A stretch of 63,723 nt of DNA, filler included, from Folioceros fuciformis (lineage: Eukaryota), in the NCBI GenBank assembly GCA_049999805.1. It is 23 parts of 23 records of this genome, joined end to end, with 100 filler letters (N's around TTAATTAATTAA, not from the genome) between each part and the next. Parts side by side here need not be neighbours in the genome. Positions count along the whole stretch, not along the records: positions 12,782 to 14,367 come from JBNGIO010002757.1; 22 more parts are not named here. One strand, written 5' to 3'. The notes beneath the pieces are model-generated. The model worked only from the letters and a program-made list of their open reading frames with translations. It had not been told where the DNA came from and searched no databases. Every line of letters starts with the position of its first letter. Position 1 is the stretch's first letter. Shown piece after piece: positions 38 to 60,274 of the stretch. The position numbers and the translations under genes were made by a program.

Positions 38-718
38 ATGGCCAACCGGTTGGAAGGACATCAATGGCATCAAGGCGCGCAAGCTGCAAGGAACATCATT
101 GTTGATCAACTTAATCAACATGTGGCTGAATGGATTGCAAGGAATCAGCATCAGCCAGTGCTTGCGTTGGAAGTAAGGGAATCCTACAATACCTTAATTG
201 AAGTGATATTCCCTGACCAGCACCACTTGATTATAGCCCTTCCACCTCGTAACCCTGATAATCTCCCAGAAGTGCGCGTACAGAGAGCTTTTGATGGAAA
301 TGGTCATCATAGAGGCTTTCTAACAACACACGTTGCACCTGCCACAAGTGTCACTCAATTAGTCAATAGAATTGAGGCACATCAAGAGCACATAGATACA
401 CGTTTCAGCAGTATTTTGAGTCAAGTCTCTGCAACTAGTATAGATGTAAGAGACTTGCAAGAACAGATAGGGCATTTGGACTTTAAACTTCTTACCTTGT
501 TAAAGCCACAATTACTTGCTAACCCAGCACACAGGGGAGTAGCCTGTAAACACACTAAGAAAACAAGTAAGAAGCATATGTTTGGTGTCCCAAACTCTTG
601 CCCTTCCTGCTTAGTGTATGCATTCAATAAGTGGGAGATTAGAAACCAAAGAGTAGCAAACAGAGTTAGAGAACAAGAGTTTGCTATCAGACCTGCTAAT
701 GCTGTAAACATACTCTGA
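38..718 (+). CDS. Extra ORF (ORF0) upstream of copia gag; coiled-coil-like segment and C-x9-H-x7-C-x2-C motif; unknown function
   Basis: Intact 226-aa ORF ending 113 nt before the gag ATG (832); homologs in the same position at 12979-13698 and 10695-11365. Confidence 0.8.
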   Translation: MANRLEGHQWHQGAQAARNIIVDQLNQHVAEWIARNQHQPVLALEVRESYNTLIEVIFPDQHHLIIALPPRNPDNLPEVRVQRAFDGNGHHRGFLTTHVAPATSVTQLVNRIEAHQEHIDTRFSSILSQVSATSIDVRDLQEQIGHLDFKLLTLLKPQLLANPAHRGVACKHTKKTSKKHMFGVPNSCPSCLVYAFNKWEIRNQRVANRVREQEFAIRPANAVNIL

Positions 719-831
719 CTCTGCTGACCTGATAGCATTTAATTGAAGTCTCAAAGGTTGAACCCCTGCAACAGCCATTATAGAATCTTAGTATATTGGG
801 AGTAGCTAACCCAACATACAAAAGAGGAAAA

Positions 832-3800
832 ATGGCAACCACAGCACCAGACCCCTCTACTAGTCTAGGTGGGGAAGGGTTCAAAGAAAAAGATAGGTTT
901 GGAGGGCAGGATTACGACATATGGGTAATCCGAATGAAAGGGGCCCTACAAAACAAGAAGTTGTGGAAGGTGGTCAATGGGGATGAACCAGCCCCAGCGG
1001 CACCTGCAAATCCAGCACAACCTACTAATGCTGAGAGAAGAGCACAAGAAGCATGGGACTCAAAGGATGAAGCCGCCATGTTTCTAATCAGAAGTGGTCT
1101 TACCTCTGAAATGCTAAGACAGACTTCAGGATGCATAACCTCAGCAGAAATCTGGACGAGACTTCAAGACCTATATTCAGGCAGCAATCAAACAAGTCAG
1201 ATGACAGCAATGAGAAATTTGCAACTAAACAAGTCAGATGACAGCAATGAGAAATTTGCAACTATGTAAAATGAGAGAAGGAGACTCAATTGAAAAACAC
1301 CTTGGATACTTCAGAACACTTGTGTCCAAGCTAGAGAGTGCTTCAAATGATATTATAAAGGATGACATGCTTATATTATATTTCCTGATATCCTTACCAG
1401 ATTCCTGGTCACACTTTGTGACATCTTTTAATGCTTCCAAGCTCCAAACTAAAAAACTAGCAAAGGCTTCAGGTGTTACCCTACCAGAGACAAGCTTTGC
1501 TGAGTTAGTGGGAGCCTTATTACAAGAAGAAGCAAGCAGATCACATGGTAGACGATCTGGTAAGCAGCAAGCCCTCTTCACATCAAATAGAGGACGTGGA
1601 GGAGGAAGACCCTTTAACAAGGGTGGTGGTAGTACCTCAAGAGGTGGTGGTTCTCAAGCACGAGGAACCAACCAGAAGAAGCCAAAAAGAACAGGAAACT
1701 GCAATTGGTGTAAATTACCTGGTCACTGGGAGCGTGAGTGTAGGAAAAAGCAAGCTGGTGTTCCTCGCAAGGAGGGTTCGACCAGCGCTGAAACTCATGT
1801 GGTTGTGAAGAAACAGCCAACACCCTCAGCTCTTACAGTCGGTACTACAGTTTTTGCAACAAGTTCTTTCTTGTATCCAGCCAGCCTGTCAGCAAATACC
1901 AAGAGTAAGCCTGTGTTAGATTGGTATCTAGACACAGGGGCAACAGCCCACATTTGCTTTGACAGAGGTTCATTTCAGACATACAAAATTTACAATGATC
2001 AGTATGTATACCTAGGTGATGATAGATCCCTAGTGTCTCCAGGTCGCGGCTCAATAGACCTGCCAGTTCCATCAGGACATGTGTTAACACTGCATGATGT
2101 TTACTTTGTTCCTGACATGACACGTAACCTAATTTCAGTTAGGAAGTTGAATTCAGACAACCACTGTCACATTCTGTTCACACAAACAGAATGTCAAGTA
2201 CTAGATGCTTTTAATCATAGCAGAATACTTGCCTATGGGTCCTCAGATAGAGACTTGTTTCGTCTCCACACAGACAGAAGTGTACCAGCATCATATTTGA
2301 CACAAGATGCAACTGCTGTATCTGCAAAACAGATAGAAAAATCTATGTTATGGCATAGGAGATTAGGTCATCCACATTCAGCAAAACTTCAGAAGCTTGC
2401 TGTAAGCAATCTTTACCAGGATGGTCCTATAGGGCAGTTGGCATCACTCCCATTGTGTGAGTCTTGTGTTCTTTCAAAGAGACATTAGGCAGCCTTTAAG
2501 AACAAGGCCCCACATAGAGCCTCTGAAGTTCTTGAGCTTGTACACACAAATTTGTGTGGTCCTCTTTCCCAGCCGTCAATAGGAGGGGGAAAATACTTCC
2601 TGACCTTCACTGATGATAAAACCAGGTTTGTTACAACCTACATTGTTAAACAGAAGAGTGAGTGTTTCAGTCACTTCAGACATTATATCAAATATGCTGA
2701 AAGATGGACCGGAAGGCAACTCAAAATCTTGAGATCAGATAATGGGGGAGAGTTCATTTCTGATGAATTCCAATCTTACTGTGCATCTCAGGGAATAGGA
2801 CGCCAGCTGACAGTGGTGTATACACCTCAGCAAAATGGTGTTGCTGAACGTGAAAACCTAAGCGTGCAAGAGATGACATCGTCATTATTACATCAAGCCC
2901 AGTTACCATTGCCATACTGGGCAGAAGCTTTAATGACTGCAACTTACCTGAAGAATAGGTTGCCTACTTCTTCTGTTGAAGGCTAGACTCCTTTTAAAGC
3001 TTTCACAGGGCGCAAGCCTTCTATTCTCCATCTGCGCACATTTGGCTGTGTTGCATATGCCTTTATACCTAAGAAAAAGAGGAAGAAGCTGCAAGACAAG
3101 GCCAAAAAGCTATTAATGCTAGGCTATACAGAGGGCATTAAAGCCTACAAACTGTATGATGTTCCCAAAAACAAAGTTGTTTACGCCAGAAGTGTTACCT
3201 TTGATGAAGGCCGCACTTGGGTTTCAGTGGGAGCTTCCCAAGATGTTGGTGTTGCTTCCCTTGATGATGATGTTTCATTCGATCAGTTTGAACATGGAAC
3301 ACAGGTTGTCCCCTTGGAGGACATTGCTCCTGCAGGAGGGGAAGATCCAGCCGCTGATTTTGAAGTTGTTGATGTTGATGACCTTGCGGTGGCAGAACCT
3401 GCACCTGTCAATGAACCAAAACATCAGCAGCAGCAGGGCATACAGGACCAATATCCTCCTGCACAACCTGCTCCTGATCTAATTGACCTTGCAAACTTAC
3501 CTGCTGATTTAGATAACCATGATGCAGCCCCTGACCCAGCTGCAGATCAGCCTGATGAGCCCGTTGCAGAGCCTCGGCGTTATCCTACTCGCCATAGGCA
3601 GCCTCCTGATTTTTACCAAGCTCCGGACTTCAGGACTGCTTCTTCTCATGTCGCTGTCCATGCTGACACTCCATCTCTTGATCCCATCGAGCCTCAATCA
3701 TATGAGGAGGCCTTAAGCAGACCTGATCATAAGGAGAGGGAGAAGGCAATCCAGTCAGAATATGATTCACTGATTGAAAACGGTACATGGGAATTAACAG

Positions 3801-5282
3801 ATCTACCTCCTGGCCGGAAGCTGGTTACCTGCAAGTGGGTCTTCAAGCTGAAGGTGAAGGCTGATGGTACCTTTGATAGGTACAAGGCCCGTCTAGTTGC
3901 AAGGGGCTTCTCACAGATTCCTGGAGTTGATTTCCTTGAAACCTTTTCTCCAGTTGTGAAGCTGTCCACCCTCAGGATCACCCTTGCAATATCCACATAC
4001 TACAATTATGAACTGCAGATGTATGACGTTAAGACAGCCTTCTTGTATGGAAAGCTGGATATTGAAATCTACATGCAGCAACCACCTGGTTATGTGGTGA
4101 AAGGAAAAGAACATCAAGCTTGCAAACTCATTAAGTGCATTTATGGCTTGAAACAGTCAGCCATGAAATGGAATGCAGCCCTAGAAACAGAGTTGCTAGA
4201 ACTAGGGTTTATTAAAAGCCAAGCTGACAGCTGCCTCTACATTTACCTCAAAGGGACTGTCACTTGCTATCTGGCTGTCTATGTTGATGACTTGATTCTG
4301 TCAAGTAACAGCCAAGAGTTCATAGTTAGTATCACTGATGTACTAGCTACGAAATTCAAGATGAATTGCCTAGGACCCCTACAAAGCTGCTTAGGGATCC
4401 ATGCGCAGAGGAACAGGAAGACACGGGTGATGACACTTACACAACCTCATTACCTCTTAGAGTGTGCAGAGCAATTAGGGCTCAAGGAAGCCAAACCTGT
4501 ATCCACACCCATGCCTTTCGGTCAGAAGCTCAGCAAGCTCATGTCTCCTACAACTGAAGAGGAAAAGGAGCAAATGAGGGGAGTCCCTTACAGGCAGGGT
4601 GTAGGGAAACTTATCTATGCTAGCAATACAACGAGATTGGAAGTGGCATACACTACTAGTGTGCTCTCGCAGTTCCTTGAAAACCCCGGAAAAGAACACT
4701 GGACGAACCTGAAGCGTGCCTTCCGTTATTTGAAGGGCACTGCCAAGATTGGATTAGCATACAAGTATCAAAATGGCAAGCAACTGGATTTGGAGGTCTT
4801 TACCGATTCAGACTATGCTGGAGATGTGGACAGTAGAAAATCAGTCTCTGGCTACATAATTTCAGTTGCTGGTGGTCCCGTGTGTTGGTCCAGCAAAAAA
4901 GCAGCCAACGGTGGCTCTGTCTTCTACTGAAGCGGAGTATCGTGTCTTGACAGCAGCTGCGAAAGAGATAGTGTGGTGTAAGTTATTGTTCAAAGAGCTA
5001 GGTATCCAGATACCTAGTTGCACAACAATTCACACTGACAATCAGGGTTCGATGGCCTTAGCCAAAAATCCAGTGTTCCATGCACGAACAAAGCATGTTG
5101 AAGTGGAGTACCACTACATTAGGGGACTGGTGACAGAAGGGAAGATTAATTTAAAATATGTTCCGACTCAAGACAACCCGGCGGACATACTTACAAAGTC
5201 TTTGAGCAGAGATGCTCACCACAGACACATGCAACGTCTGGGCATGGGAGAGGCAGAAGCCCTCCTGGACAGTTCTGACTAA
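832..5282 (+). mobile_element. Ty1/copia gag-pol (GAG-PR-INT-RT-RNaseH), near complete, disrupted
   Basis: FKEKDRFGGQDYDIW gag N-terminus; CNWCKLPGHWEREC knuckle; WYLDTGAT protease; LWHRRLGH; LRSDNGGEF/YTPQQNGVAER integrase; YKARLVARGF and [24 protein letters not shown] RNase H. Lesions: 37-bp duplication, stops at 2486 and 2984, extra A at 4895-4900. Confidence 0.97.
1190..1263 (+). repeat. 37-bp perfect tandem duplication frameshifting gag
   Basis: AAACAAGTCAGATGACAGCAATGAGAAATTTGCAACT x2 (ATGs at 1201 and 1238). Confidence 0.95.
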
Positions 5283-10369: not shown

Positions 10370-10540
10370 CTAAACCCCATCATTCGCACCAACAGAAGTG
10401 ATTCATTTCCTGTTGCTATCTTCCATAGCTCCTTACTTTGTAAGGCTCCTTTCATACGCATGACCCAGATGTCATAGTCAGTCCCCCCAAATCTATCTTT
10501 CTCCTTAAAAATATCACCAACTACAGTAGTGGTGTGCCAT
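10370..10540 (-). mobile_element. Copia gag N-terminus (truncated)
   Basis: Reverse strand reads FKEKDRFGG.DYDIWVMRMKGALQSKELWK, homologous to gag at 832. Confidence 0.85.
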
Positions 10541-10694
10541 TTATTAGAATGTAGTAATTCTATCCTAACTGTTAGGAGAAATGGCTGTATGCAGCTTTGT
10601 AGCCTATCCAGACAAGGTACAAACTGAAGAGAAAGACTGGGAAGAGGTAAGATGCTACTGTTGCATCTTAGATAAACTGCAGGAGCAGCCCTAT

Positions 10695-11365
10695 CTACAA
10701 GGGGTGAGCAAATCTACCAACTTGAGGTAAATTGGCCTGTTGATTTGCTAATCTATTTTCTATCCTTTGATGTCTAATCTCCCATCTGTTAAATGCATAA
10801 ACAGAGCATGAAGGACAGGAATTTGGAGCGTCAAAAGTGTGTTGCTTATAATTCTTGTTAGCACGTTTGCAAGCAACACCTCTGAGTGCAGGATTTGTTA
10901 GCAAAATGGGCTTAAGCAAGGTAAGCAACTTGAAGTCCAAATGTCCTATACGTTCCTTCAAATCTTGCAAGTCAACACTGACTTCAGCTATCTTGTGACG
11001 AATGCTCTGGAAACGCTCGTCAACATGCTGTTGAAGTGTTTCTATTCTTGCATTTAATTGTGACACACTAACATGTGGTGATGTGCGTGTTGTCAGGAAA
11101 CCCCTAGGGTTACCGTTTACAATAGGTGGAAGATTAATTTGATTCCTGGGTGGTGGAGGAAGCAACAAATGGCGCTGTTGTGGGAAGATAGCCTCAAGCA
11201 GATTGTTGAAGGAATCTCTCACAAGCCGGGATTGTTCAGGCTGGTCTTGTGTTTGAAGAATCCAATCCAGGGTTTGATGGTGAAGTGATTCTGCAAAAGT
11301 CAGCCTGCCCTCTTGAATTCGTTGTCCTCTATGGGCATTCCTCTATTGAATGCGCTCAGCAGAGC
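10695..11365 (-). pseudogene. Diverged ORF0 homolog upstream of copia gag
   Basis: IGHLDFKLLTLLKP, RGVACK, PNSCPSC, VYAFN.WEIR shared with 38-718; the 5' part has a stop and a frameshift. Confidence 0.85.
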
Positions 11366-12681: not shown

Positions 12682-12978
12682 NNNNNNNNNNNNNNNNNNN
12701 NNNNNNNNNNNNNNNNNNNNNNNNNTTAATTAATTAANNNNNNNNNNNNNNNNNNNNNNNNNNNNNNNNNNNNNNNNNNNNCTATAGTGTTTTTAGATAC
12801 AATTTTTGGAACATAAGGCAGTAATCCTTGCGCATTTTCCTGATTTGCTGTCACAGCAAATTCAGAAGAAATGCTCAAGGACAACTACCTAATCTGCAAG
12901 AAAAGTATTAGAAATATAATTATAGAAAAGGAAAAAGTTTAAAGAAAGCATTTAACAACATAGAACTTGGTCTAATGA

Positions 12979-13698
12979 ATGGCCAATCGCCTCGATGGGC
13001 GCCAGTGGCAGCCTCGCCCTGCAGAGAGAATTCAACATCAGAATCTCAACAAGAGGCAAGGAGCACAGGCAGCAATAGCAAAGCATCTTCATCCACAAGT
13101 TACTGAATGGATTGCTCATGCACAAAATCAACTTGTGCTTGCTTTGGATGTAAGAGAATCTTTTAATACCTTGATTGAAGTTCTCTTCCCAGATCAGCGC
13201 CATCTGGTACTGGCTCTTCCACCTAGGAACCCAGACAATCTCCCAGAGGTGCGTGTTCAGAGAGTCTTTGATGGTAATGGCGTACAAAGAGGTTTTCTAA
13301 CAACACACGTTGCACCTGCTACAAGTGTATCTCAATTAGTAAATAGAATTGAGGCACATCAAGCATATGTTGATACACGTTTCAACAATATTCTACGCAA
13401 TGTTTCTGCAACTAGTGTGGATGTAAGAGACTTGCAAGAACAGATAGGGCATCTAGATTTTAAACTTCTTACCTTGTTGAAACCTGCTTTACTTGCTAAT
13501 CCAGCACATAGGGGAGTAGCCTGTAAGCATGTTAAGAAAACAAGTAAGAAACATTTGTTTGGTGTTCCAAACTTTTGCCCTTCCTACTCAGTGTATGCAT
13601 TTAATAAATGGGAGATTAGAAACCAAAGAATAGCAAATAGAATTAGAGAACAAGGGTCTGTAGAAGACAGACCTGCTAATGCTGTCAACATTCTTTGA
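12979..13698 (+). CDS. ORF0 copy 2 upstream of copia gag
   Basis: 239-aa intact ORF colinear with 38-718; ends 113 nt before the gag ATG at 13812. Confidence 0.8.
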   Translation: MANRLDGRQWQPRPAERIQHQNLNKRQGAQAAIAKHLHPQVTEWIAHAQNQLVLALDVRESFNTLIEVLFPDQRHLVLALPPRNPDNLPEVRVQRVFDGNGVQRGFLTTHVAPATSVSQLVNRIEAHQAYVDTRFNNILRNVSATSVDVRDLQEQIGHLDFKLLTLLKPALLANPAHRGVACKHVKKTSKKHLFGVPNFCPSYSVYAFNKWEIRNQRIANRIREQGSVEDRPANAVNIL

Positions 13699-13811
13699 CC
13701 TTGCTGACCTGATAGCATGAGTCTGAAGCTCTGAGTCTTAAAGCCCTCCAACAGCCACTTTAGAATCTTAGTGTCTTGGGAGTAGCTAACCCAAAGCACA
13801 AAAGATGAAAA

Positions 13812-14367
13812 ATGGCTGATGCCTCATCAAGTTTGGGTGGGGAAGGGTTTAAGGAGAAAGACAGATTTGGTGGGCAAGATTACGACATATGGGTAATCCG
13901 CATGAAAGGAGCCTTACAGAACAAGAAACTCTGGAAGGTGGTTGCTGGGGAAGAGAATTCCCTAGTAGTCTCAACTCCGCCCACAGCAGTTGAAAGAAAA
14001 TTGCAGGATGCATGGGATTCAAAAGACGAAGCCGCCATGTTTCTGATTCGGAGCGGTCTTACCTCAGAAATGCTGAGACATACGTAAGGATGTTCAACTT
14101 CAGCAGAAATCTAGTCTAGCTTCAAGACCTGTATGCAGGCAACAATCACTCAAGTCGGTTGACAGCCTTGCACTGCAACTTTGCAAGATGAGAGATGGTG
14201 AATCAATAGAGAAACATCTTGGACATTTCAGAGCACTTGTTTCAAAACTGGAAAGTGCTTCAAATGAGACTATCAAGGATGATATGCTTGCCCTTTACTT
14301 CCTCTTGTCACTCCCGGAGTCCTGGTCACATTTTGTGACCTCCTTCAATGCTTCTAGACTCCAAACT
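13812..14367 (+). mobile_element. Copia gag 5' part, disrupted (same family as 832-5282)
   Basis: FKEKDRFGGQDYDIWVIRMKGALQNKKLWKVV; LPESWSHFVTSFNAS. Confidence 0.92.
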
Positions 14368-14726: not shown

Positions 14727-17468
14727 CAAGCCCAGGAAGAGGATGGTGCCACAAAACAAGACTCCTGGCAAGAGGAAAAGGACCAAAGGACAAAGTGTGA
14801 GCATGGGGGCTGATTAGGAGGAAGGGGGGACAGCCCTGGAGCAGACGGGTCAGCAGGAGGCAGAACGAGAACCAGCTGTCCAGGGAATCAAGGACCGAAG
14901 GTTGGAAGAGCAAGGTCAGGGTGAGACAAGACCCGAGGAACCACTGGATCAGGTGATGGTAGCCGACACAATTTCCTCCAGACAGGAGGATAAGTTAGGG
15001 CACGTTTCAGCACAGGAGGGTTCCTCAAGGTGGAAGGACATTTTCAAGTGCAGGCCTCAGAGAGACAGGTTGTAGGTGGGGGACCTGGACAAGTTGCGAG
15101 AATTCCTGGGAAGATAAATCACGGCAAGAGGAATGGGCGCCGGAGGGGTGCAGGAGGTGGACCTACCCGGGCTTACTGCTGCGATAGTGCAGGCCCAAGC
15201 AGACCTCCTGGATTAGGCTGCTAGGGCCCTGACCTGGTTAAGTGTACAGGCGGTGCGAGAGGCCGAGGCTTGGGGAAAGGAGGAGAAGGCTCGTGAGCGA
15301 GAGGCTAAAGCAAGGAGCCAACTAGTGGAGTCGGAGACGGCGTGGCAACTGCTGAAGGAGAAGCAGCAGGTCCTGGACGGGGAGAAGGCTCAAGCCGAGG
15401 AAGAGGCGCGTGAGGCGAGGGCTAAAGTGCAAGCGCTGAAAGAGCAACAGGGGACCCTGCTAGCTCAGGTGAGGGAGGCTCACGAGACTAACCTGGAGAT
15501 GCAACAGGAAATGGTCAGGGCACAGGAGATAGCCGCTGTAGAGCAGGCTCAGAAGTTGGCTGACAGATACAAGCGCGAGCAGGATGAGGGTGAAGGGGAA
15601 GAGCAAGGCTGGGTGTCCGAGTCAGTCGGCGACCCCGGTAGCAGAAGGGGCTATCGGTAGCCGAACCAGGGGAACGGTAGTCGAGGGGACTACCGGTAGT
15701 CCATGGGACTACCAAATAGTCCACGGGACTACCGGATAGTCCACGGGACTACGGATAGTCGGGTAGCCGACGGGGCTACCGGTGGCCCAGCAAGGCCTAG
15801 GATAGCTAAAGAACCAACCCTGGAAACGAAGGAGGAAGCAGTAGGGGTGCCTACCCCTAGGCGCTCCAAGAGGGTGACCCGTACTAGGAGGATAGAGCCG
15901 GAGGAGGCAACAGCTGGGCAGGCAGAGAACCTTCAGGTACCCCAGCGGGAGGGGGAGCATGCAACCCGAGGTAGCCCAAGGGAGGATGGGGTAAGCACCT
16001 CTGTTATGACAAAAGGTCGGATTGTGCTGCAGTATGAGGAGGAGGCCTCCTATGTGCCAGGCCTGTATGTAGAAGGGGCCAGGGTTCTGAAGCTGTTTCT
16101 GTATGTACGTATGGGCACAAGAGGGACACGGGGCTACGGCCTACAGTTGAGGACGCGCCTGGGACTCTACCACTACAAATGGTGGGTGACAGGACTGCCC
16201 CACTGCTATGCGGAGGCAGTTCTGGAGGAACTGACGGAAGAGGAGGCCTAGCGCTGGGTAGAACGGGGGCCTGTGGCTGTCCTCAACAACCAGAGAAGGA
16301 GGAGGAGTGGTGGACCACAGCGGCGGGACCCACTTGCGCCACCAGCCAGGTCCAGCAGTAGCAACATTGATGTGGAGATCCTCTGGGAGGATCTGTCGGA
16401 CCAACGGAGGGGCAGAAGAGCGAGAGGAGGAGCAGCAAGGGGTGACGCGCGAAGGCCAGTAGCAAGCCGCCTGCGGCATGGGAAAGGGCGATAGTAAATG
16501 CAGGCTAGAATAGGATTTGTTTAGCGTGCTTTATTTGGACCTAAGTCACTCAGAATTTAAGAGCGCAGCTCCCCTGCCTGACAAACTTTATGGCGGAAAA
16601 AAACCGCCATCACCGTGTACAAGAGGCCAGTTTGGAGGCCTAAGAAATCAGCAAGAACCAGCCGAACAGTCGACCTTGCAGGGACCTAGCGATGGCCATT
16701 GCTGGACAGGAGGTCCAGGCAAGCGAGCGCACGTAGCAACCAGGGGTGCGGGTGTAGGTGGTGGGCGCTCCGTGATTAGGTCCGGGGACGAATCGGGAGG
16801 AGGAGCCTCGCCGAGTGGGAGAGAAGCTCCCCAGCTATCCTCGAGGTGGTCACGTGGGGTGGTGCAGGAGTCGGAGCCGAATTCGCGAGTGCGGAGTGGA
16901 AGGGACTCCTCTTCCCTTAGCCCTATACCTCACCATTCCTCAACGTTAATAGGAGCCCAGGAGGGGGCATCGCTGAGAAAGAAGACTGAAGAACCAGAGA
17001 AAGGAGAGCGCGGGAGTGCGCGTGTGAGAGAAGGAGGAGGAGCGAGTGGCCGAGTAGTGGGTAAGAGCGAATGCGAAAAGGAAGCTAGAAGGAGTGGAGC
17101 AGAGTGGAAGTGATTTGACGACTGTTAAGACGGGCAGAATGTATACAGAGAACTGGCGAGTGGGGTAAGAGAGAACAAAGCCGGGGAAACCCCGAAGAAG
17201 AGGTGGATAATGTGTGTGAGGTGCAACGAGACGTGGTGTGTATGTGTGATTGGTCGCGATAAGACTGGAGAGGTTGTGAAGAAGCTGAATTGAGGCCGCA
17301 GGGGTTGTATCTAAGGTGTGAGATCACGCGGGAGGAAGGCGTCCAACAGATTGCTGCTGTTCATGTGTGCGTGCGCTTCTTTCTGAGGTGAGTGAGGCGG
17401 TTTTGTGGTGAACCAAGGAAGGGAAGCGCAAAAGGGGATGCGCGGGCAGGAGGTAATCAGCCGGGTAG
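14727..17468 (+). mobile_element. ORF-bearing TG..CA element: 3' half of the ORF (stop at 16494) and conserved downstream non-coding region
   Basis: Homologous to 29657-30807, 55220-56360, 58954-59340 and 62340-63570; coiled coil EKLREF...ADRYKRE; C-terminal LQYEEE.SYVPGLYVEGARVLKLFLY domain. Confidence 0.85.
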
Positions 17469-29656: not shown

Positions 29657-30807
29657 TTCACTCTCTCTCTGGCCTCATCCCGCTCCCGCTTGTATCTGTC
29701 AGCCAACTTCTGAGCCTGCTCCACGGCGGCTATCTCCATCTCCTGTGCCCTGGCCATTTCCTGTTGCATCTCCAAGTTAGTCTCGTGAGCCTCCCTCACC
29801 TGAGCTAGCAGGGTCCCCTGTTGCTCTTTCAGCGCCTGCACTTCAGCCCTTGCCTCGCGCGCCTCTTCCTCGGCTTGAGCCTTCTCTCTGTCCAGGACCC
29901 GCTACTTCTCCTCCAGCAGTTGTCGCGCCGTCTCTGACTCCGCGAGTTGCCTCCTTGCTTCAGCCTCTCGCTCACGAGCCTTCTCCTCCTTTCCCCAAGC
30001 CTCGGCCTCTCGCTCCGCTTGTACACTTAACCAGGTCAGGGCCCTAGCAGCCTAATCCAGGAGGTCTGCTTGGGCCTGCACCATCGCAGCAGTCAGCCTG
30101 GGTAGGTCCACCTCCTGCACCCCTCCAGTGCCCATTCCTCTCGTTGTGATTTGTTTGCCTAGGAATTCTCGCAACTTGTCCAGGTCCCCCACCTGCAACC
30201 TGTCTCTCTGAGGCCTGCACCTGAAAATGTCCTTCCACCTTGAGGAACCCTCCTGTGCTGAAACGTGCCCTACCTTATCCTCCTGTCTGGAGGAAACTGT
30301 GTCGGCTGCCATCACCTGATCCCGTGGCTCCTCGGGTCTTGTCCCACCCTGACCTTGCTCCTCCAACCTTCGGTCCTTGATTCCCTGGACAACTGGTTCT
30401 CATTCTGCCTCCTGCTGACCCATCTGCACCATGGCTGTCCCCCCTTCCTCCTGATCAGCCCCCATGCTCACACTTTGTCCTCTGGTCCCTTTCCTCTTGG
30501 CAGGAGTCTTCTTTTGTGGCACCAACCTCTTCCTGGGCTTGATTGGGGTTTCCTCCTGCGAGCTATTCCCACTGTCAGCTTCCCAACTGTTGGAGGCAGC
30601 CCTTGCTAGCTCAGCGGGCTTCCACTTCACATCGCGAACTGGCTTCCACAGGTGCAGCGAGGCCAGCCATTCTAGCTCAGTGACCAGGTTAGCGTAACAG
30701 TACACATGGATTAGAAATGGGGAAATCATAGAAGGTTCAGGGGTGGGTCGGATCAGGTTCTGCCTCTCCTCATCCATCCGGGTGTATAAAATCCTCCCCT
30801 AGTCGAT
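29657..30807 (-). mobile_element. ORF-bearing TG..CA element, middle of the ORF
   Basis: RILYTRMDEER...SSRWKDIFRCRPQRDRLQVGDLDKLREF...EQAQKLADRYKRE. Confidence 0.9.
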
Positions 30808-48548: not shown

Positions 48549-49478
48549 TCATGTCTCTCCTTTCAACCATGGATGATCCAATACATCCTTAGCTTTGGGG
48601 CGTAAAGAAGGAGCATCTTGCAACATTCTTAACATAAGATCTGATGCTAGGTTGGAAAAATATTTTCTAATTTGACCTAATCTTGAAGGTGATAAAACAC
48701 CTACATGTTGGAGAAGGTCGTTTTTAGTTGGGAATAAAGTTATATATGAACCACAGAGTATGCTATAAAGAAGTAACCCTAAGGTCCATATATCAACTTG
48801 AGATCCATAAGATTCTCCTTTCAAAATTTCAGGAGCCATTAGTTCTTGTGTGCCAATAATTCCCACACATGATTCGTCAGTCAAGATTGGACAGTGTATT
48901 GCAGATCGAAAATTAACTATGACTATGGAGGAGTTATTGTTTTCATTCAAAAAAAGAATATTTTTGTGTTTCAAGTCTCTATGTACAACACCATGAGTAT
49001 GGCATACATGAATGCCTGTTACAATCTCCTTAAAAACTCTCCGCACATTGTTCTCATCATATGTAAAAATCCTAGGAAATAAGGGTCCTCCCTTGTATAT
49101 ATTTGAGATCATGTGAATATGATATCTATCTTCAAATACTCCCTTTAAATCTATAATGTTGGGATGTTTTGGAAGAAATTCTTGAAGAGCACTCACCTCC
49201 CTTTGCAAATCTTGTGGTTCTAAGCCTAATATAAAGGCATCTTGCTTGTTAATAGTCTTGCAAGCTAGTTCCTTATGTGAGTTTTTGTCAATACAAAAAT
49301 AGATTTTGCTAAAAGTGCCTTCACGATATATCTTTTGTTGAAAAATATCGTATTTTCTTCTTACATGTGTTCTTAACACCTTAGGGTTATTTTCAAAGAC
49401 TTGCACTATTTTTGGATCAGGTGAAAAAGGATATATAGGAAAAGGAAATTTCTTGTACACGACAAAAGGAAACTTCAT
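48549..49478 (-). CDS. Intronless CDPK/CAMK-family kinase domain, probable pseudokinase or retrocopy
   Basis: LACKTINK, REV...LPKHPNI, HRDLKHKN, NFR in place of DFG, APE, DIWTLG, VLDHPW; no EF-hands. Confidence 0.85.
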   Translation of the reverse strand: MKFPFVVYKKFPFPIYPFSPDPKIVQVFENNPKVLRTHVRRKYDIFQQKIYREGTFSKIYFCIDKNSHKELACKTINKQDAFILGLEPQDLQREVSALQEFLPKHPNIIDLKGVFEDRYHIHMISNIYKGGPLFPRIFTYDENNVRRVFKEIVTGIHVCHTHGVVHRDLKHKNILFLNENNNSSIVIVNFRSAIHCPILTDESCVGIIGTQELMAPEILKGESYGSQVDIWTLGLLLYSILCGSYITLFPTKNDLLQHVGVLSPSRLGQIRKYFSNLASDLMLRMLQDAPSLRPKAKDVLDHPWLKGET

Positions 49479-49500
49479 TCTTGAATACTAGTTAGTAGGG

Positions 49501-51404: not shown

Positions 51405-51467
51405 AATCTGCTGACCATCTTTCGTTGGTAATACAGATTAACAAACTTTACACCAGAATTCATACAG

Positions 51468-51687
51468 TTGAGCACACTGCCCCTCACAATTGAGCACACT
51501 TGCCCTCACAATTGAGCACACTGCCCCTCACAATTGAGCACACTTGCCCTCACAATTGAGCACATTGCCCCTCACAATTGAGCACACTTGCCCTCACAAT
51601 TGAGCACACTGCCCCTCACAATTGAGCACACTTGCCCTCACAATTGAGCACACTGCCCCTCACAATTGAGCACACTGCCCCTCATAA
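51468..51687. repeat. 22-bp tandem repeat x10 in the gypsy 3' UTR
   Basis: TTGAGCACACTGCCCCTCACAA and TTGAGCACACTTGCCCTCACAA variants. Confidence 0.97.
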
Positions 51688-52837
51688 TGTATCAACTGCT
51701 ACACACATTGGACTAAACCATTGCCCCTCAGGCACTGCTTCTAGTGGAGGCTCTAAACAAAAAATATGCCACCCATCATTGCACCTATCACACAACAACA
51801 TGCAATGATCATTTCCAGAAGCTCCACAACTTGTACAAGCAAATCCCTTCTTCGGTACAAAAGCTTGCACATCAATTATTGGGTTTAAGTGAGGTAAATG
51901 ACATGACGCACAATTTTTCATGTGTTCCAAACAAGTTGTACTATCTTTCCCCTCCAACTCCAAAACTCCATTCAACTTCACACTTCTCACCCTTAATATT
52001 ATCCTACTCATACTTGTATCAATTGTTGTCATTGTCTTCCTCTGCAAATATACATAATCTCCAACTTCAAACTTTTTCACCTTAGGTCTGAAATGCCCAC
52101 TCCTTGTCTTCATGTACCTCAACTCATCTCTATGTTGAGCTATTAACAAGTTATCCATTGCCATAGGCATAATTCTCCTAAACAATTTTGCTCTATGTGT
52201 AACTATCTTCAACCAGTTATTAGGATCATCCAGCTCCACTATAGTATTCACCTTGTCTTCTAACATCCCAGATAACTGTGGTGTACATCCAAACAACAAC
52301 ATGTATGGTGAAAACTTTCCCAGCGATGCTTGCCTACTCATCCTATAACCCCTCGTAAGAAATGTCAACATCCTATCCCACTCACTCTTATCCATACCAA
52401 ACAATACTTCCTCAAAGCATTCTTACATGTCTGTACCATTCTTTCTGCCAAACCATCAGCCTCCAGATGATTCCTTAAAGTTACACTATGATCAATAAGA
52501 TACTCATTTAAAAATTCATCAAAATCTCCCATAAATTCAGTATCCTAATCTGTCAACACTTCTGCACAAGCCCCAAAAACATTCAACACATGATTAAGAA
52601 ACGCTTCTTTAATATCATGTGACTTCTTCTCTCTCAAAGGCACCAAAACTATCCACTTAGAGAAATGTTTTATCATCACCAACACATATATAAAACCTCT
52701 ACACTTGACTAGTACCTCTCCGGCAAAATCCAAACTCCACCTATAAAACATCCCCCTAATAGGTAGCGGATGAAGCTGAGAAGTTTTGCCCGAAAAACTT
52801 GCTTTCACCCTATCACAAACCTTACAAGTAGACACCA
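51682..52837 (-). mobile_element. Ty3/gypsy integrase with C-terminal PHD finger
   Basis: CKVCDR..LHPLPI..FYRWSLDFAG..HFSKW..EVLTD; ADGLAERMVQT; FEVGDYVYL; CTSC...LLCDRCNDGWHIFCLEPPL..VPEGQWFSPMC. Confidence 0.93.
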
Positions 52838-54876: not shown

Positions 54877-56360
54877 AGGCAAAAGTAAGGGCCGAGACAA
54901 TGTGGCGACGGTAGTCGGCAGGGCAACCGTCGCCGGAGGAATGACTGGTGGTAGCCAAACGGGCGGTAAGGAGAGAAAGCAAGCAGGGCATAAAAACCCT
55001 ATAGAAAGGGGAGCTTTGTCCAGCATCCGAAAGCGCGGGGAGCGGGAGTAACTTGAAGCGTGAAGCGGCTGAACGAGGAGAAAGAACTAGGACGACGGGG
55101 TAGGGCGTAAGGGTTGAGCAGGCACAGGGGAGTGGGAGACCTCCAAGGCGCGAGCGGTGGAGAGAGTTGGGCGAACAGAGGAAGAGCCAGAGCGTGACGA
55201 GGATAGAAGAGTTCCGAGCCTGAAATGGGGAAATCAGGAGGAAATGGGGACAAACCTGGAGCAGACGGATCAGCAGGAGGCAGAACGAGAACCAGCTGTC
55301 CAAGGGATCAAGGACCGAAGGTTGGAGGAGCAAGGTCAGGATGAGACCAGACCCGAGAGCCACCAGATCAGGTGATGGCAGCTGACACAGTTTCCTCCAG
55401 ACAGGAGGATAAGTTAGGGCACGTTTCAGCACAGGAGGGTTCCTCAAGGTGGAAGGGCATTTTCAGGTGCAGGCCTCAGAGAGATAGGTTGCAGGTGGGG
55501 GACCTGGACAAGTTGGGAGAATTCCTGGGCAGACAAATCACGGCGAGAGGAATGGGCGCCAGAGGGGTGCAGGAGGTGGACCTACCCGCGCTGACTGCTG
55601 CGATGGTGCAGGCCCAAGTAGACCTCCTGGATCAGGCTGCTAGGGCCTTGACCTAGTTAAGTGTACAAGCGGAGCAAGAGGCCGAGGCTTGGGGAAGGGA
55701 GGAGAAGGCTCGTGAGCGAGAGGCTCAAGCAAGGAGGCAACTGGCGAAGTCGGAGACGGCGCGGCAACTGCTGGAGGAGACGCAGCGGAACCTGGACAGG
55801 GAGAAGGCTCAAGCCGAGGAAGAGGCGCGCGAGGCAAGGGCTGAAGTGCAGGCGCTAAAAGAGCAATAGGGGACCCTGCTAGCTCAGGTGAGGGAGGCTC
55901 ACGAGACTAACTTGGAGATGCAATAGGAAATGGCCAGGGCACAGGAGATGGAGATAGCCGCTGTGGAGTAGGCTCAAAAGTTGGCTGATAGATACAAGCG
56001 GGAGCGGGATGAGGCCAAAGAGAGTGAAGGGGAAGAGCAAGGCTGGGCGTCCGAGTCAGTTGGCGACCTCGGTAGCAAAAGGGGCTACCGGTAGCCGAAC
56101 TAGGGGAACGGTAGTCGAGGGGACTACCGGTAACCGAACCAGGGGAACGGTAGTCGAGGGGACTACCGGTAGCCGAACCAGGGGAACGGTAGTCGAGGGG
56201 ACTACCGGTAGCCGAATCAGGGGAACGGTAGTCGAGGGGACTACCGGTAGCCGAACCAGGGGAACGGTAGTCGAGGGGACTACCAGTAGTTTGGTAGTCC
56301 ACGGGACTACCAGTAGTTTGGTAGTCCACGGGACTACCAGTAGTCGGGTAGCCGACGGGG
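54877..56360 (+). mobile_element. ORF-bearing TG..CA element with internal deletion
   Basis: 5' leader joins directly to mid-ORF near 55220, lacking about 0.9 kb present at 59240-60160. Confidence 0.88.
56081..56360 (+). repeat. 39-bp x5 plus 27-bp x2 tandem repeats inside the element ORF
   Basis: CTACCGGTAGCCGAACCAGGGGAACGGTAGTCGAGGGGA units, then GGGACTACCAGTAGTTTGGTAGTCCAC units. Confidence 0.93.
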
Positions 56361-58953: not shown

Positions 58954-60274
58954 AGGAATTCTCGCAACTTGTCCAGGTCCCCCACCTGCAACCTGTCTCT
59001 CTGAGGCCTGCACCTGAAAATGTCCTTCCACCTTGAGGAACCCTCCTGTGCTGAAGCGTGCCCTAACTTATCCTCTTGTCTGGAGGAAACTGTGTCGGCT
59101 GCCATCACCTGATCCGGTGGCTCCTCGGATCTTGTCCCACCCTGACCTTGCTCCTCCAACCTTCGGTTCTTGATTCCCTGGACAGCTGGTTCTCGTTCTG
59201 CCTCCTGTTGACCTGTCTGCTCCAGGGCTGTCTCCCCTTCCTCCTGATCAGCCCCCATGCTCACACTTTGTCCTCTGATCCTCTTCCTCCTGGCAAGAGC
59301 CTTTTTTTGTGGGGCCACCCTCTTCCTAGGCTTGACTGGGGTTTCCTCCTGCGAGCTATTCCCACTGTCAGCTTCCCAACTGCTGGAGGCAGCCCTTGCT
59401 GGCTCAGTGGGCTTCCACTTCACATCACGAACTGGCTTCCATAGGTGCAGCGAGGCCAGCCTTTCTAGCTCAGTGACCAGGTTAGCGTAACTGTACACGT
59501 GGATTAGAAACAGGGAAATCATAGAAGGTTCAGGGGTGGGTCGGATCAGGTTCGGCCTCTCCTCATCCATCCGGGTGTATAAAATCCTTCCCCAGTCAAT
59601 CCTGGTGCCCTTCACTACTTCATGCACAAACAGGAGCATCTGATCAGACAGATAATCTTATTTGCGTACCTGGAAGAAGCTCAGGAACCACCTGGCCAAT
59701 CCCAGCAGCTGGGGACTTGCCATGTCGCGCACCAGCCCCCCGTTCGCTTCCTTTCTCGTGCCTGCCTTAAGCATTTCCGCCGCTCCCGTTCCGCCACGCC
59801 TTTCCAGGGACTCCAGCACCAGTCCCCCTTCCTCCTGTTGGTCGCGCCCATAGACCCTCCTGATCAACTCCAGGTTCCATTCCTGGGGTCTGCCTCTGAT
59901 CCCCTCCTCGCATACAGGCTCTATCAGCCTCAGGGCGCACTCCTTGACCAGCTGGGGTGCTGCATGGTTCCACTTATGGGTCATAAAAGTTAGACCCAGC
60001 TCTGCTACTAATTTTCCTGCCTTGACCCTCCAGTGCTGCATATTGGGCCACAGAAGCAGGTCGATTTGGGGGACATGAGGTCCCCCCTCCTGTCTAGAGG
60101 CTGCTGCTCCAGGAATTAGTTCAGGCCGCGACCTCATCCTGCCTATCCCCCTCCCCTCACGCTCGGGCTCGGAACTCTTCTGTCCTGGTCGCGCTCTGGC
60201 TCTTCCTTTGTTCGCCCAGCTCTCTCCACTGCTCACGCCTTGGAGGTCTTCCACTCCCCTGTGCCTGCTCAACC
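58954..60274 (-). mobile_element. ORF-bearing TG..CA element, N-terminal half of the ORF (ATG about 60137)
   Basis: One frame with a single stop at 59658; APQLVKEC..IRGRPQEWN..MLLFVHEVVKGTRIDWGRILY. Confidence 0.88.

Follow-up and report, generated by a model that had tools for sequence, protein, structure and literature searches.

To our knowledge, Ty1/copia retrotransposons are usually described as carrying gag-pol only, with the 3′ ORF of SIRE as the exception. Extra ORFs on the 5′ side are known from the grass elements Retrosat2, RIRE3, RIRE8, and FRetro3, for whose ORF0 the accessible part of the report gives a Ka of 0.257 and a Ks of 1.65 (PMC3485330). The available portion of the REXdb survey lists forward 5′ extra ORFs for Tekay (33%), TatII (23%), and Ogre (21%), a few of the Ogre ORFs matching SMC-type coiled-coil models; within Ty1/copia, it lists no extra ORF in 13 of the 16 lineages, a 3′ ORF in SIRE, and 2–6% extra ORFs in Bianca and Ikeros, the latter in a table column that is ambiguous (PMC6317226). 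Its threshold was at least 250 codons, so that most copies of the ORF described here (223–253 aa when full-length and open) would be missed by a survey of this kind (same portion of PMC6317226). In the Drosophila 412/MDG1 elements, sORF1 and sORF2 lie upstream of gag, measure 70–110 aa, and were first recognised by their low dN/dS; the helical, nuclear sORF1 is served by a short transcript of its own (accessible part of bioRxiv 2025.03.14.642691). On the 3′ side, antisense ORFs occur in Grande, RIRE2, and Retand (PMC7264820), and copia elements of Arabidopsis produce multi-exonic, non-coding antisense transcripts (bioRxiv 2024.04.02.587720), as given in the available parts of both sources. Within the literature covered, which was mostly open-access and in several cases consisted of excerpts, no Ty1/copia lineage with a fixed 5′ ORF is described.

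The window analysed here, a stretch of 63,723 nucleotides of Folioceros fuciformis DNA, consists of 23 short contigs; the runs of N between them come with a linker in which every frame meets a stop. Retroelement pieces are abundant across it, and the primer site and gag domains of its elements are of a kind known from plant elements. Three copies of an ORF, which we call ORF0, are present, and the start of a copia gag lies after each of them (Table 1); in all three, gag-pol is broken or truncated by contig ends. The proteins of copies 1 and 2 are 74% identical over their local alignment, and copy 3 shows 51–54% identity to the other two. The gag-pol of copy 1 matched the Pfam families PF14223, PF22936, PF13976, PF00665, PF25597, and PF07727, in that order. 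By its gag-PR-IN-RT-RH order, copia-type gag, and RVT_2, the element that bears ORF0 is a Ty1/copia LTR retrotransposon.

Table 1. Positions in the window of the three ORF0 copies and of the features that accompany them
Feature	Position	Strand	Remarks
ORF0 copy 2 (focal)	12979..13698	+	239 aa, open, basic, pI 10.2
ORF0 copy 1	38..718	+	226 aa, open, private in-frame N-terminal deletion
ORF0 copy 3	10695..11360	-	diverged subfamily; 5′ end lost at contig end; one internal stop
Spacer of copy 2, ORF0 stop to gag AUG	13699..13811	+	113 nt
Spacer of copy 1	719..831	+	113 nt; same palindromic-loop hairpin at ~791-819
Leader hairpin of copy 2, upstream of ORF0	12826..12880	+	compensatory changes, kept across the clade
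Spacer hairpin of copy 2, 9-nt loop with 6-nt palindrome	13771..13799	+	candidate kissing-loop dimerisation site
Spacer near-palindrome of copy 3, 15 nt	10563..10577	-	counterpart of the spacer hairpin in that subfamily
gag of copy 2, 5′ part, copia type	13812..14367	+	stops and frame change; ends at contig end
gag-PR-IN-RT-RH of copy 1, Ty1/copia order	832..5282	+	small frame-changing duplication in gag, three stops
gag of copy 3, 5′ fragment	10396..10527	-	

Other features of the window include a cytochrome P450 gene fragment on a small contig (11726–12148, plus strand), an uninterrupted protein kinase frame of 312 codons (48549–49487, minus strand), and a PHD-finger frame (51682–52422, minus strand) beside a 22-nt tandem array (~51420–51727). 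A GC- and purine-rich repeat family, with 91–95% identity, occupies positions 14727–15698, 29663–30541, 55233–56288, and 58954–59334, and contains a 39-nt tandem run near 56020–56288.

The anatomy of the whole element was established from relatives elsewhere in the genome. Paired LTRs of 205–258 nt, 97.6–98.1% identical and with 5-bp target duplications, delimit L031, L033, and L038, and the elements are 6.8–7.3 kb long. In these three and in L043 and L048, the LTRs start with TA and finish with CA or AA, and a purine tract precedes them; the usual LTR start is TG. A primer site of the tRNA-Met type, judged by its motif, lies 338–380 nt upstream of the ORF0 AUG. Read from 5′ to 3′, the element begins with a 5′ LTR (~205–260 nt), the tRNA-Met primer site, and a structured leader of ~360 nt. 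ORF0 follows, separated by a spacer from gag-pol, which forms a single frame; next come a region of 0.6–1.35 kb with an antisense gene, a polypurine tract, and the 3′ LTR. The leader has a consensus fold with both-sided changes in 17 of its 26 pairs (15 sequences), mostly in a stem of 21 pairs, and positions 12811–12890 in the leader of copy 2 gave a folding z of −6.9. Some copies have both ORF0 and a gag-pol frame of 1452 codons without interruption, which makes ORF0 a frame of its own rather than a fragment of gag.

The spacer between ORF0 and gag measures 53–162 nt across the clade and occurs in all three phases. The 113 nt noted in the preliminary description is correct for both window copies; being a value of their subfamily only, it is not a conserved coupling distance. 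Folding of the whole 113-nt spacer, which had been suggested as a check, was no better than that of shuffles (z 0.04); at the local level, the window's subfamily has a hairpin with a 9-nt loop containing a 6-nt palindrome flanked by purines. In its alignment, 93% of the 140 cells are paired and the palindrome is intact in 13 of 14 copies. Its covariation signal is modest, with 27 of 500 shuffles scoring at least as high, and the hairpin is therefore only a candidate dimer site. Another group of subfamilies has, at the same place, a 15-nt near-palindrome with a two-sided change, and neither structure was seen in several basal subfamilies. The loop of the HIV-1 dimer site has 9 nt. In layout, the candidate site of the window's subfamily resembles a retroviral kissing-loop dimer site, namely a stem-loop near gag with a palindromic loop and flanking purines, the last two being those given for HIV-1 in the accessible part of PMC516450. 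We take the spacer to keep, just before gag, an RNA signal that would probably serve genome dimerisation.

The preliminary description had proposed purifying selection on ORF0 from a stretch of 22 codons, in which we recovered exactly the 8 synonymous and 1 nonsynonymous differences between copies 1 and 2, at the codons first listed. Because that stretch had been picked by eye, the whole frame was tested. Over 223 codons, dN/dS was significantly below 1, at 0.165 (Nei-Gojobori; bootstrap 95% CI 0.10–0.25; Fisher p = 6e-20), and it was 0.198 (CI 0.12–0.31) over the 177 codons left after removing the picked stretch and the poorly aligned N-terminus. The value for gag in the same pair was 0.079 (94 codons); weighting transitions two-fold gave 0.21 for ORF0 and 0.12 for gag. 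Differences by codon position numbered 26, 18, and 66 (199 codons), and the shifted sense frames of ORF0 gave dN/dS of 1.1 and 1.9. On the reverse strand, two frames gave 1.4 and 2.4, and the one shadowing the third positions of ORF0 gave 0.28; each reverse frame holds at least six stops per copy in all 15 open copies.

For nine between-subfamily pairs, dN/dS was 0.18–0.38 in ORF0 and 0.12–0.28 in gag, and between subfamilies it was mostly 0.04–0.16 in integrase and RT, with 0.48 in one poorly aligned integrase pair. A tenth pair, formed by two decayed copies, gave 0.47 for ORF0, and near-identical siblings gave values scattered about 1 whichever gene was compared, which is expected of copies once they have inserted. 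Values below 1 were obtained in 490 of the 492 non-saturated ORF0 pairs, which are not independent of each other, and all six regions of the protein are constrained (0.14–0.31). Stops are no denser in ORF0 (19 in 6871 codons, or 2.8 per 1000) than in gag (5.0 per 1000), integrase (3.7), or RT (4.0). Two accompanying observations need qualification. The length difference between copies 1 and 2 is in frame, at 39 nt, and most of it stems from a deletion that copy 1 alone carries (242 aa in its siblings L003, L004, and L006), so that being in frame is only a one-in-three event. Codon 203, for the last Cys, is indeed TAC in copy 2 against TGC in copy 1; the reading of this change as decay was not borne out, since Tyr203 is also found in other subfamilies (L051, L068, and L032) and L031, the closest relative of copy 2, has Phe.

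A genome search gave 139 ORF0 matches among 143 candidates, down to ~30% identity, several of them being two pieces of one copy. The 109 distinct places were compared with 149 of 150 scored gag matches, 150 of 1707 candidates having been scored. Within this scored set, ORF0 lies within 800 nt upstream of 78 of the 97 gag matches with at least 49% identity, and of none of the 52 below 49%. Ten of the 19 exceptions were opened: in five, less than 500 nt of sequence lies upstream; in another, a profile search located ORF0; two are members of the sister clade; and the last two have ~1.6 kb upstream with neither ORF0 nor primer site, their likeness to relatives stopping ~210 nt before the gag anchor. 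Conversely, 80 of the 109 ORF0 places have gag downstream among the gag matches scored, and several of those opened among the other 29 are at contig ends or interrupted. One locus (L069:1-10000) holds tandem copies with a period of 6925 nt and 100% identity over 3075 nt, probably through a shared LTR or an assembly artefact.

In an integrase tree of 42 elements, the 25 carriers of ORF0 form one clade (100/100), whose sister is a clade of 8 (99/96). With 26 elements, the ORF0 tree has 13 strong splits; the gag and integrase trees each reproduce 10 of them and each show one conflict, which lies inside one subfamily. Very probably, ORF0 is a genuine accessory gene of a single Ty1/copia clade and has been passed on with gag-pol since that clade arose. 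Support for the earlier proposal of a translated, useful ORF0 comes from its dN/dS, its fixed position in the clade, the congruence of the trees, and its stop density.

Full-length open copies have a pI of 8.8–10.7 and start with AUG-GC in 14 of 15 cases; we infer that the product is a soluble basic protein of 26–29 kDa. An AlphaFold2 model from 21 sequences was weak (pLDDT 62.5, pTM 0.29) and all-helical, placing helices at residues 16–47, 52–69, 117–173, and 203–229. The predicted layout is a helix pair (16–76), a Pro-rich linker, a heptad helix (117–173), a basic stretch with a PNxCPSx motif, and a C-terminal helix. The best heptad register of the long helix has hydrophobic residues at 13 of 18 a/d positions. 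Motifs are kept down to ~30% identity, and the N-terminus is of low complexity. In the subfamily of L044 and L087, ~55 residues including the helix pair were lost in frame, which shows that part of the protein is dispensable. Conservation of the Cys and His residues is uneven (C182 22/29, H184 16/30, H192 18/30, C200 27/30, and C203 23/30), and their region is unstructured in the weak model; only the last two Cys are mostly kept, so that a metal-binding reading of the cluster is weak. A membrane helix is absent in 14 of the 15 open copies, in which the best 19-residue hydropathy was 0.5–1.2 (1.6 in the remaining copy), and an env-like or FAST-like accessory protein was rejected on this ground.

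Database searches returned no credible relative of ORF0. The best Pfam match had an E of 0.026 and was of the coiled-coil type, and a PDB sequence match to a coiled-coil viral chain (best E 0.025) was not accepted. Nothing credible came from a word-indexed protein search, whether a single copy or the alignment of 21 sequences was the query, or from the ESM Atlas, PHROGs, and metagenome and viral contigs, and the three matches given by HMMER among 1.84 billion representatives were, on inspection, all tandem-repeat or coiled-coil proteins. Fold searches with the weak model found generic helices (best Z 6.2, best E 0.36). As a control, the element's own gag-protease matched two proteins only, one of them 23% identical over 90% of its length; since even this control barely matched, the blanks are weak evidence on novelty. 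Neither caulimovirid P2/P3 nor LINE-1 ORF1p stood out by Pfam, PDB sequence, or fold, and with so weak a model the lack of a fold match says little against either.

Our best guess is that ORF0 encodes an oligomeric nucleic-acid-binding accessory protein. The long heptad helix would make it oligomerise, and its basic ends would bind nucleic acid. Its most likely target would be RNA or DNA of the element itself: it could bind RNA as a partner when particles are assembled and trafficked, or it could be a regulator that favours expression in the face of silencing by the host. Taken as a whole, from oligomer to a role in assembly, transport, or counter-silencing, this scheme appears to us as apt to be wrong as right. 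Another reading makes the protein a particle-associated movement or transmission factor, comparable to pararetroviral virion-associated proteins or to MDG1 sORF2. Plant pararetroviruses encode coiled-coil virion-associated proteins ahead of the capsid gene, and ORF0 has both the position ahead of that gene and a predicted coiled coil followed by a basic stretch. In MDG1 elements, moreover, a 5′ ORF that mediates cell-to-cell spread does exist (accessible part of bioRxiv 2025.03.14.642691). However, the general lack of a membrane helix noted above separates ORF0 from sORF2 and env, no Pfam match to the badnavirus or caulimovirus families and no viral fold match was obtained, and we consider a movement factor unlikely.

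Leaky scanning of the badnavirus type was rejected, as ORF0 is rich in AUGs (147 out of frame against 119 expected, in 15 copies), and so was a fixed frameshift or readthrough from ORF0 into gag, given the range and phases of the spacer. With these routes excluded, gag is probably made from separate mRNAs, through another start site or splicing, or by internal initiation. No sense splice donor common to all subfamilies was found upstream of ORF0, and a TATA-like word 35–95 nt before ORF0 was not persuasive: 9 of 18 leaders contain it, where 4.2 would be expected for related sequences. The caulimovirus transactivator lets ribosomes reinitiate downstream, and the ORF0 protein could likewise be a translational transactivator or internal-entry factor, the RNA being bicistronic and ribosomes reinitiating at, or reaching, the gag AUG. 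The excluded routes and the lack of clade-wide sense splice sites leave room for such a factor, and most copies of the sister clade end their 5′ ORF ~10–13 nt short of the gag AUG, a distance suited to reinitiation. On the other hand, ORF0 resembled no known protein in our searches, its own spacer is long and variable, and no new mechanism would be required for a separate mRNA, a spliced subgenomic gag mRNA being already in use in plant copia elements (available part of PMC5580714); we consider a transactivator quite unlikely.

Leaders hold 5–11 AUGs, which counts against our best explanation as far as ORF0's own initiation is concerned. Of 18 leaders, 16 have an AUG 42–49 nt ahead of the ORF0 start, and 17 have an out-of-frame AUG at −4 or −46 that opens a frame overlapping this start (e.g., window positions 12975–12978); in some copies, a 14-codon frame stops directly before the ORF0 AUG. 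These AUGs may exert translational control or may merely form the arm of a small hairpin. Together with the place of ORF0 upstream of gag and its low-complexity N-terminus, they would suit a frame of which only the translation matters, a long upstream frame damping gag-pol with an irrelevant peptide. The amino acids are nevertheless conserved in every region, and the motifs persist in the most distant copies, by which this reading is largely refuted and left very improbable.

Evidence on transcripts came from one public run, presumed to be RNA and used as contigs, which gives neither strand nor level directly. It was compared with L048:506-5788, a 98–99% sibling of copy 1 (window 38–5282), and parts left uncovered are no evidence on expression. 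The run contains 18 joints of L048, and 13 of the 15 listed are antisense GT-AG introns of 90–237 nt whose donors are strong and whose interiors are rich in U; no sense-strand joint is among these 15. The antisense joints span pol, gag, and ORF0, and one contig reaches 1045 nt further 3′. Antisense exons over ORF0 are short and contain stops, and those over gag-pol also carry stops. Conservation at the used splice sites hardly exceeds that at unused sites (0.52 against 0.34–0.42, and 0.51 against 0.40–0.44), and the used sites look opportunistic, not conserved. One donor sits in the conserved LTL codons of ORF0, whose dN/dS is 0.13–0.16 in antisense-exon parts and 0.16–0.29 in antisense-intron parts. 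The little-conserved sites, the stops in the exons, and the equal constraint in exon and intron argue that antisense RNA is not the cause of the dN/dS of ORF0. A shadow of the other strand (antisense exons or splice signals), for which the multi-intron transcript across ORF0, the reverse frame at 0.28, and the donor in the LTL codons might speak, is thus refuted, also by the stops in every reverse frame, and capture of a host gene lacks an intron-bearing or stand-alone host version among the loci examined, which took in some of the 29 places without a listed gag downstream; this makes either origin of the low dN/dS extremely improbable.

ORF0 is not the only accessory gene in these copia clades. 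In elements of the ORF0 clade, the interval between pol and the 3′ LTR is occupied by an antisense ORF, of which there are two unrelated types. The common type (L031:9151-9798, minus strand; L092; 3′ regions of L034, L036, L043, L049, L050, and L052) has a dN/dS mostly of 0.3–0.6, near saturation, and a basic, AT-hook-like stretch; no Pfam or Atlas match was found for this ORF. A splice-donor motif was found in 8 of 12 elements, perfect and at the same codon in all 8, and a second, acidic, Ser-rich exon likely follows. In L033, L038, and L044, the place is taken by an unrelated antisense ORF with Cys/His and helical parts (dN/dS 0.12–0.37). The 5′ ORF of the sister clade (L119:6691-7263 and L114:6854-7393, both minus strand; L120; L126) encodes a basic protein of 170–195 aa, with 50 genome matches and a dN/dS of 0.40–0.65 (four pairs), and its profile comparison with ORF0 gave a probability of 1%. 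In a third, more distant copia clade, a 5′ ORF of 216–227 aa (L122:7481-8128, minus strand; L159; L166) had 35 matches and a dN/dS of 0.34–0.42 (two pairs); it encodes a CxxCxxxxH motif together with a coiled coil, and a long stretch rich in Ser and Pro comes next, in frame with gag.

One copia clade has retained a 5′ gene all through its radiation, and two more clades of this genome have 5′ genes of their own, which suggests that surveys at 250 codons missed a class of accessory genes. The three new small protein families are candidates for anti-silencing, RNA-transport, or assembly roles, and they pose the question of how gag-pol gets made behind an AUG-rich gene of 700 nt. More tentatively, these Ty1/copia elements may be complex in the way that complex retroviruses are, combining a sense accessory gene at the 5′ side with a spliced antisense one at the 3′ side. 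Since three copia clades here each have a different 5′ gene of the coiled-coil type, the host would impose a need that the upstream gene meets, be it counter-silencing, RNA export, or bicistronic translation of gag-pol, and in the boldest form of this reading the ORF0 protein licenses gag-pol expression. We regard this wider scheme as possible rather than probable.

Compared with known systems, the arrangement is one already known, of the gypsy type, and scarcely described in copia, and the ORF0 family is without a detected relative. As far as the available parts of the sources go, one of the closest likenesses is to Retrosat2, RIRE3, RIRE8, and FRetro3, which share with the ORF0 clade an upstream extra ORF, a single gag-pol frame, restriction to a lineage, and the lack of a homologue, and whose ORF0 also evolves faster than gag-pol and yet is constrained (dN/dS ~0.2 here); those elements, however, are large, with LTRs of ~3 kb, and are set beside Ty3/gypsy, whereas ours are Ty1/copia with short LTRs (PMC3485330), and no link between the two in sequence was found. 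The 5′ ORFs of Tekay, TatII, and Ogre resemble ORF0 in being on the sense strand within the interval from the 5′ LTR to gag, but all belong to Ty3/gypsy (accessible portion of PMC6317226). 412/MDG1 is of the gypsy superfamily as well, and sORF2 has a membrane helix, unlike ORF0 (same part of bioRxiv 2025.03.14.642691). SIRE (Sirevirus), on the evidence of the excerpts available, was rejected as a counterpart, its 3′ ORF being sense and its mean length 9.9 kb, in contrast to the antisense 3′ ORF and shorter elements found here. On the 3′ side, the accessible texts on Grande, RIRE2, and Retand and on the Arabidopsis copia elements describe a layout like that of this clade's antisense gene and many-intron antisense RNA. 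Unlike in the Arabidopsis elements, as portrayed there, a conserved ORF lies in the first part of the antisense unit here, its splice donor at a fixed position, and a sense gene is present at the 5′ side of the very same element.
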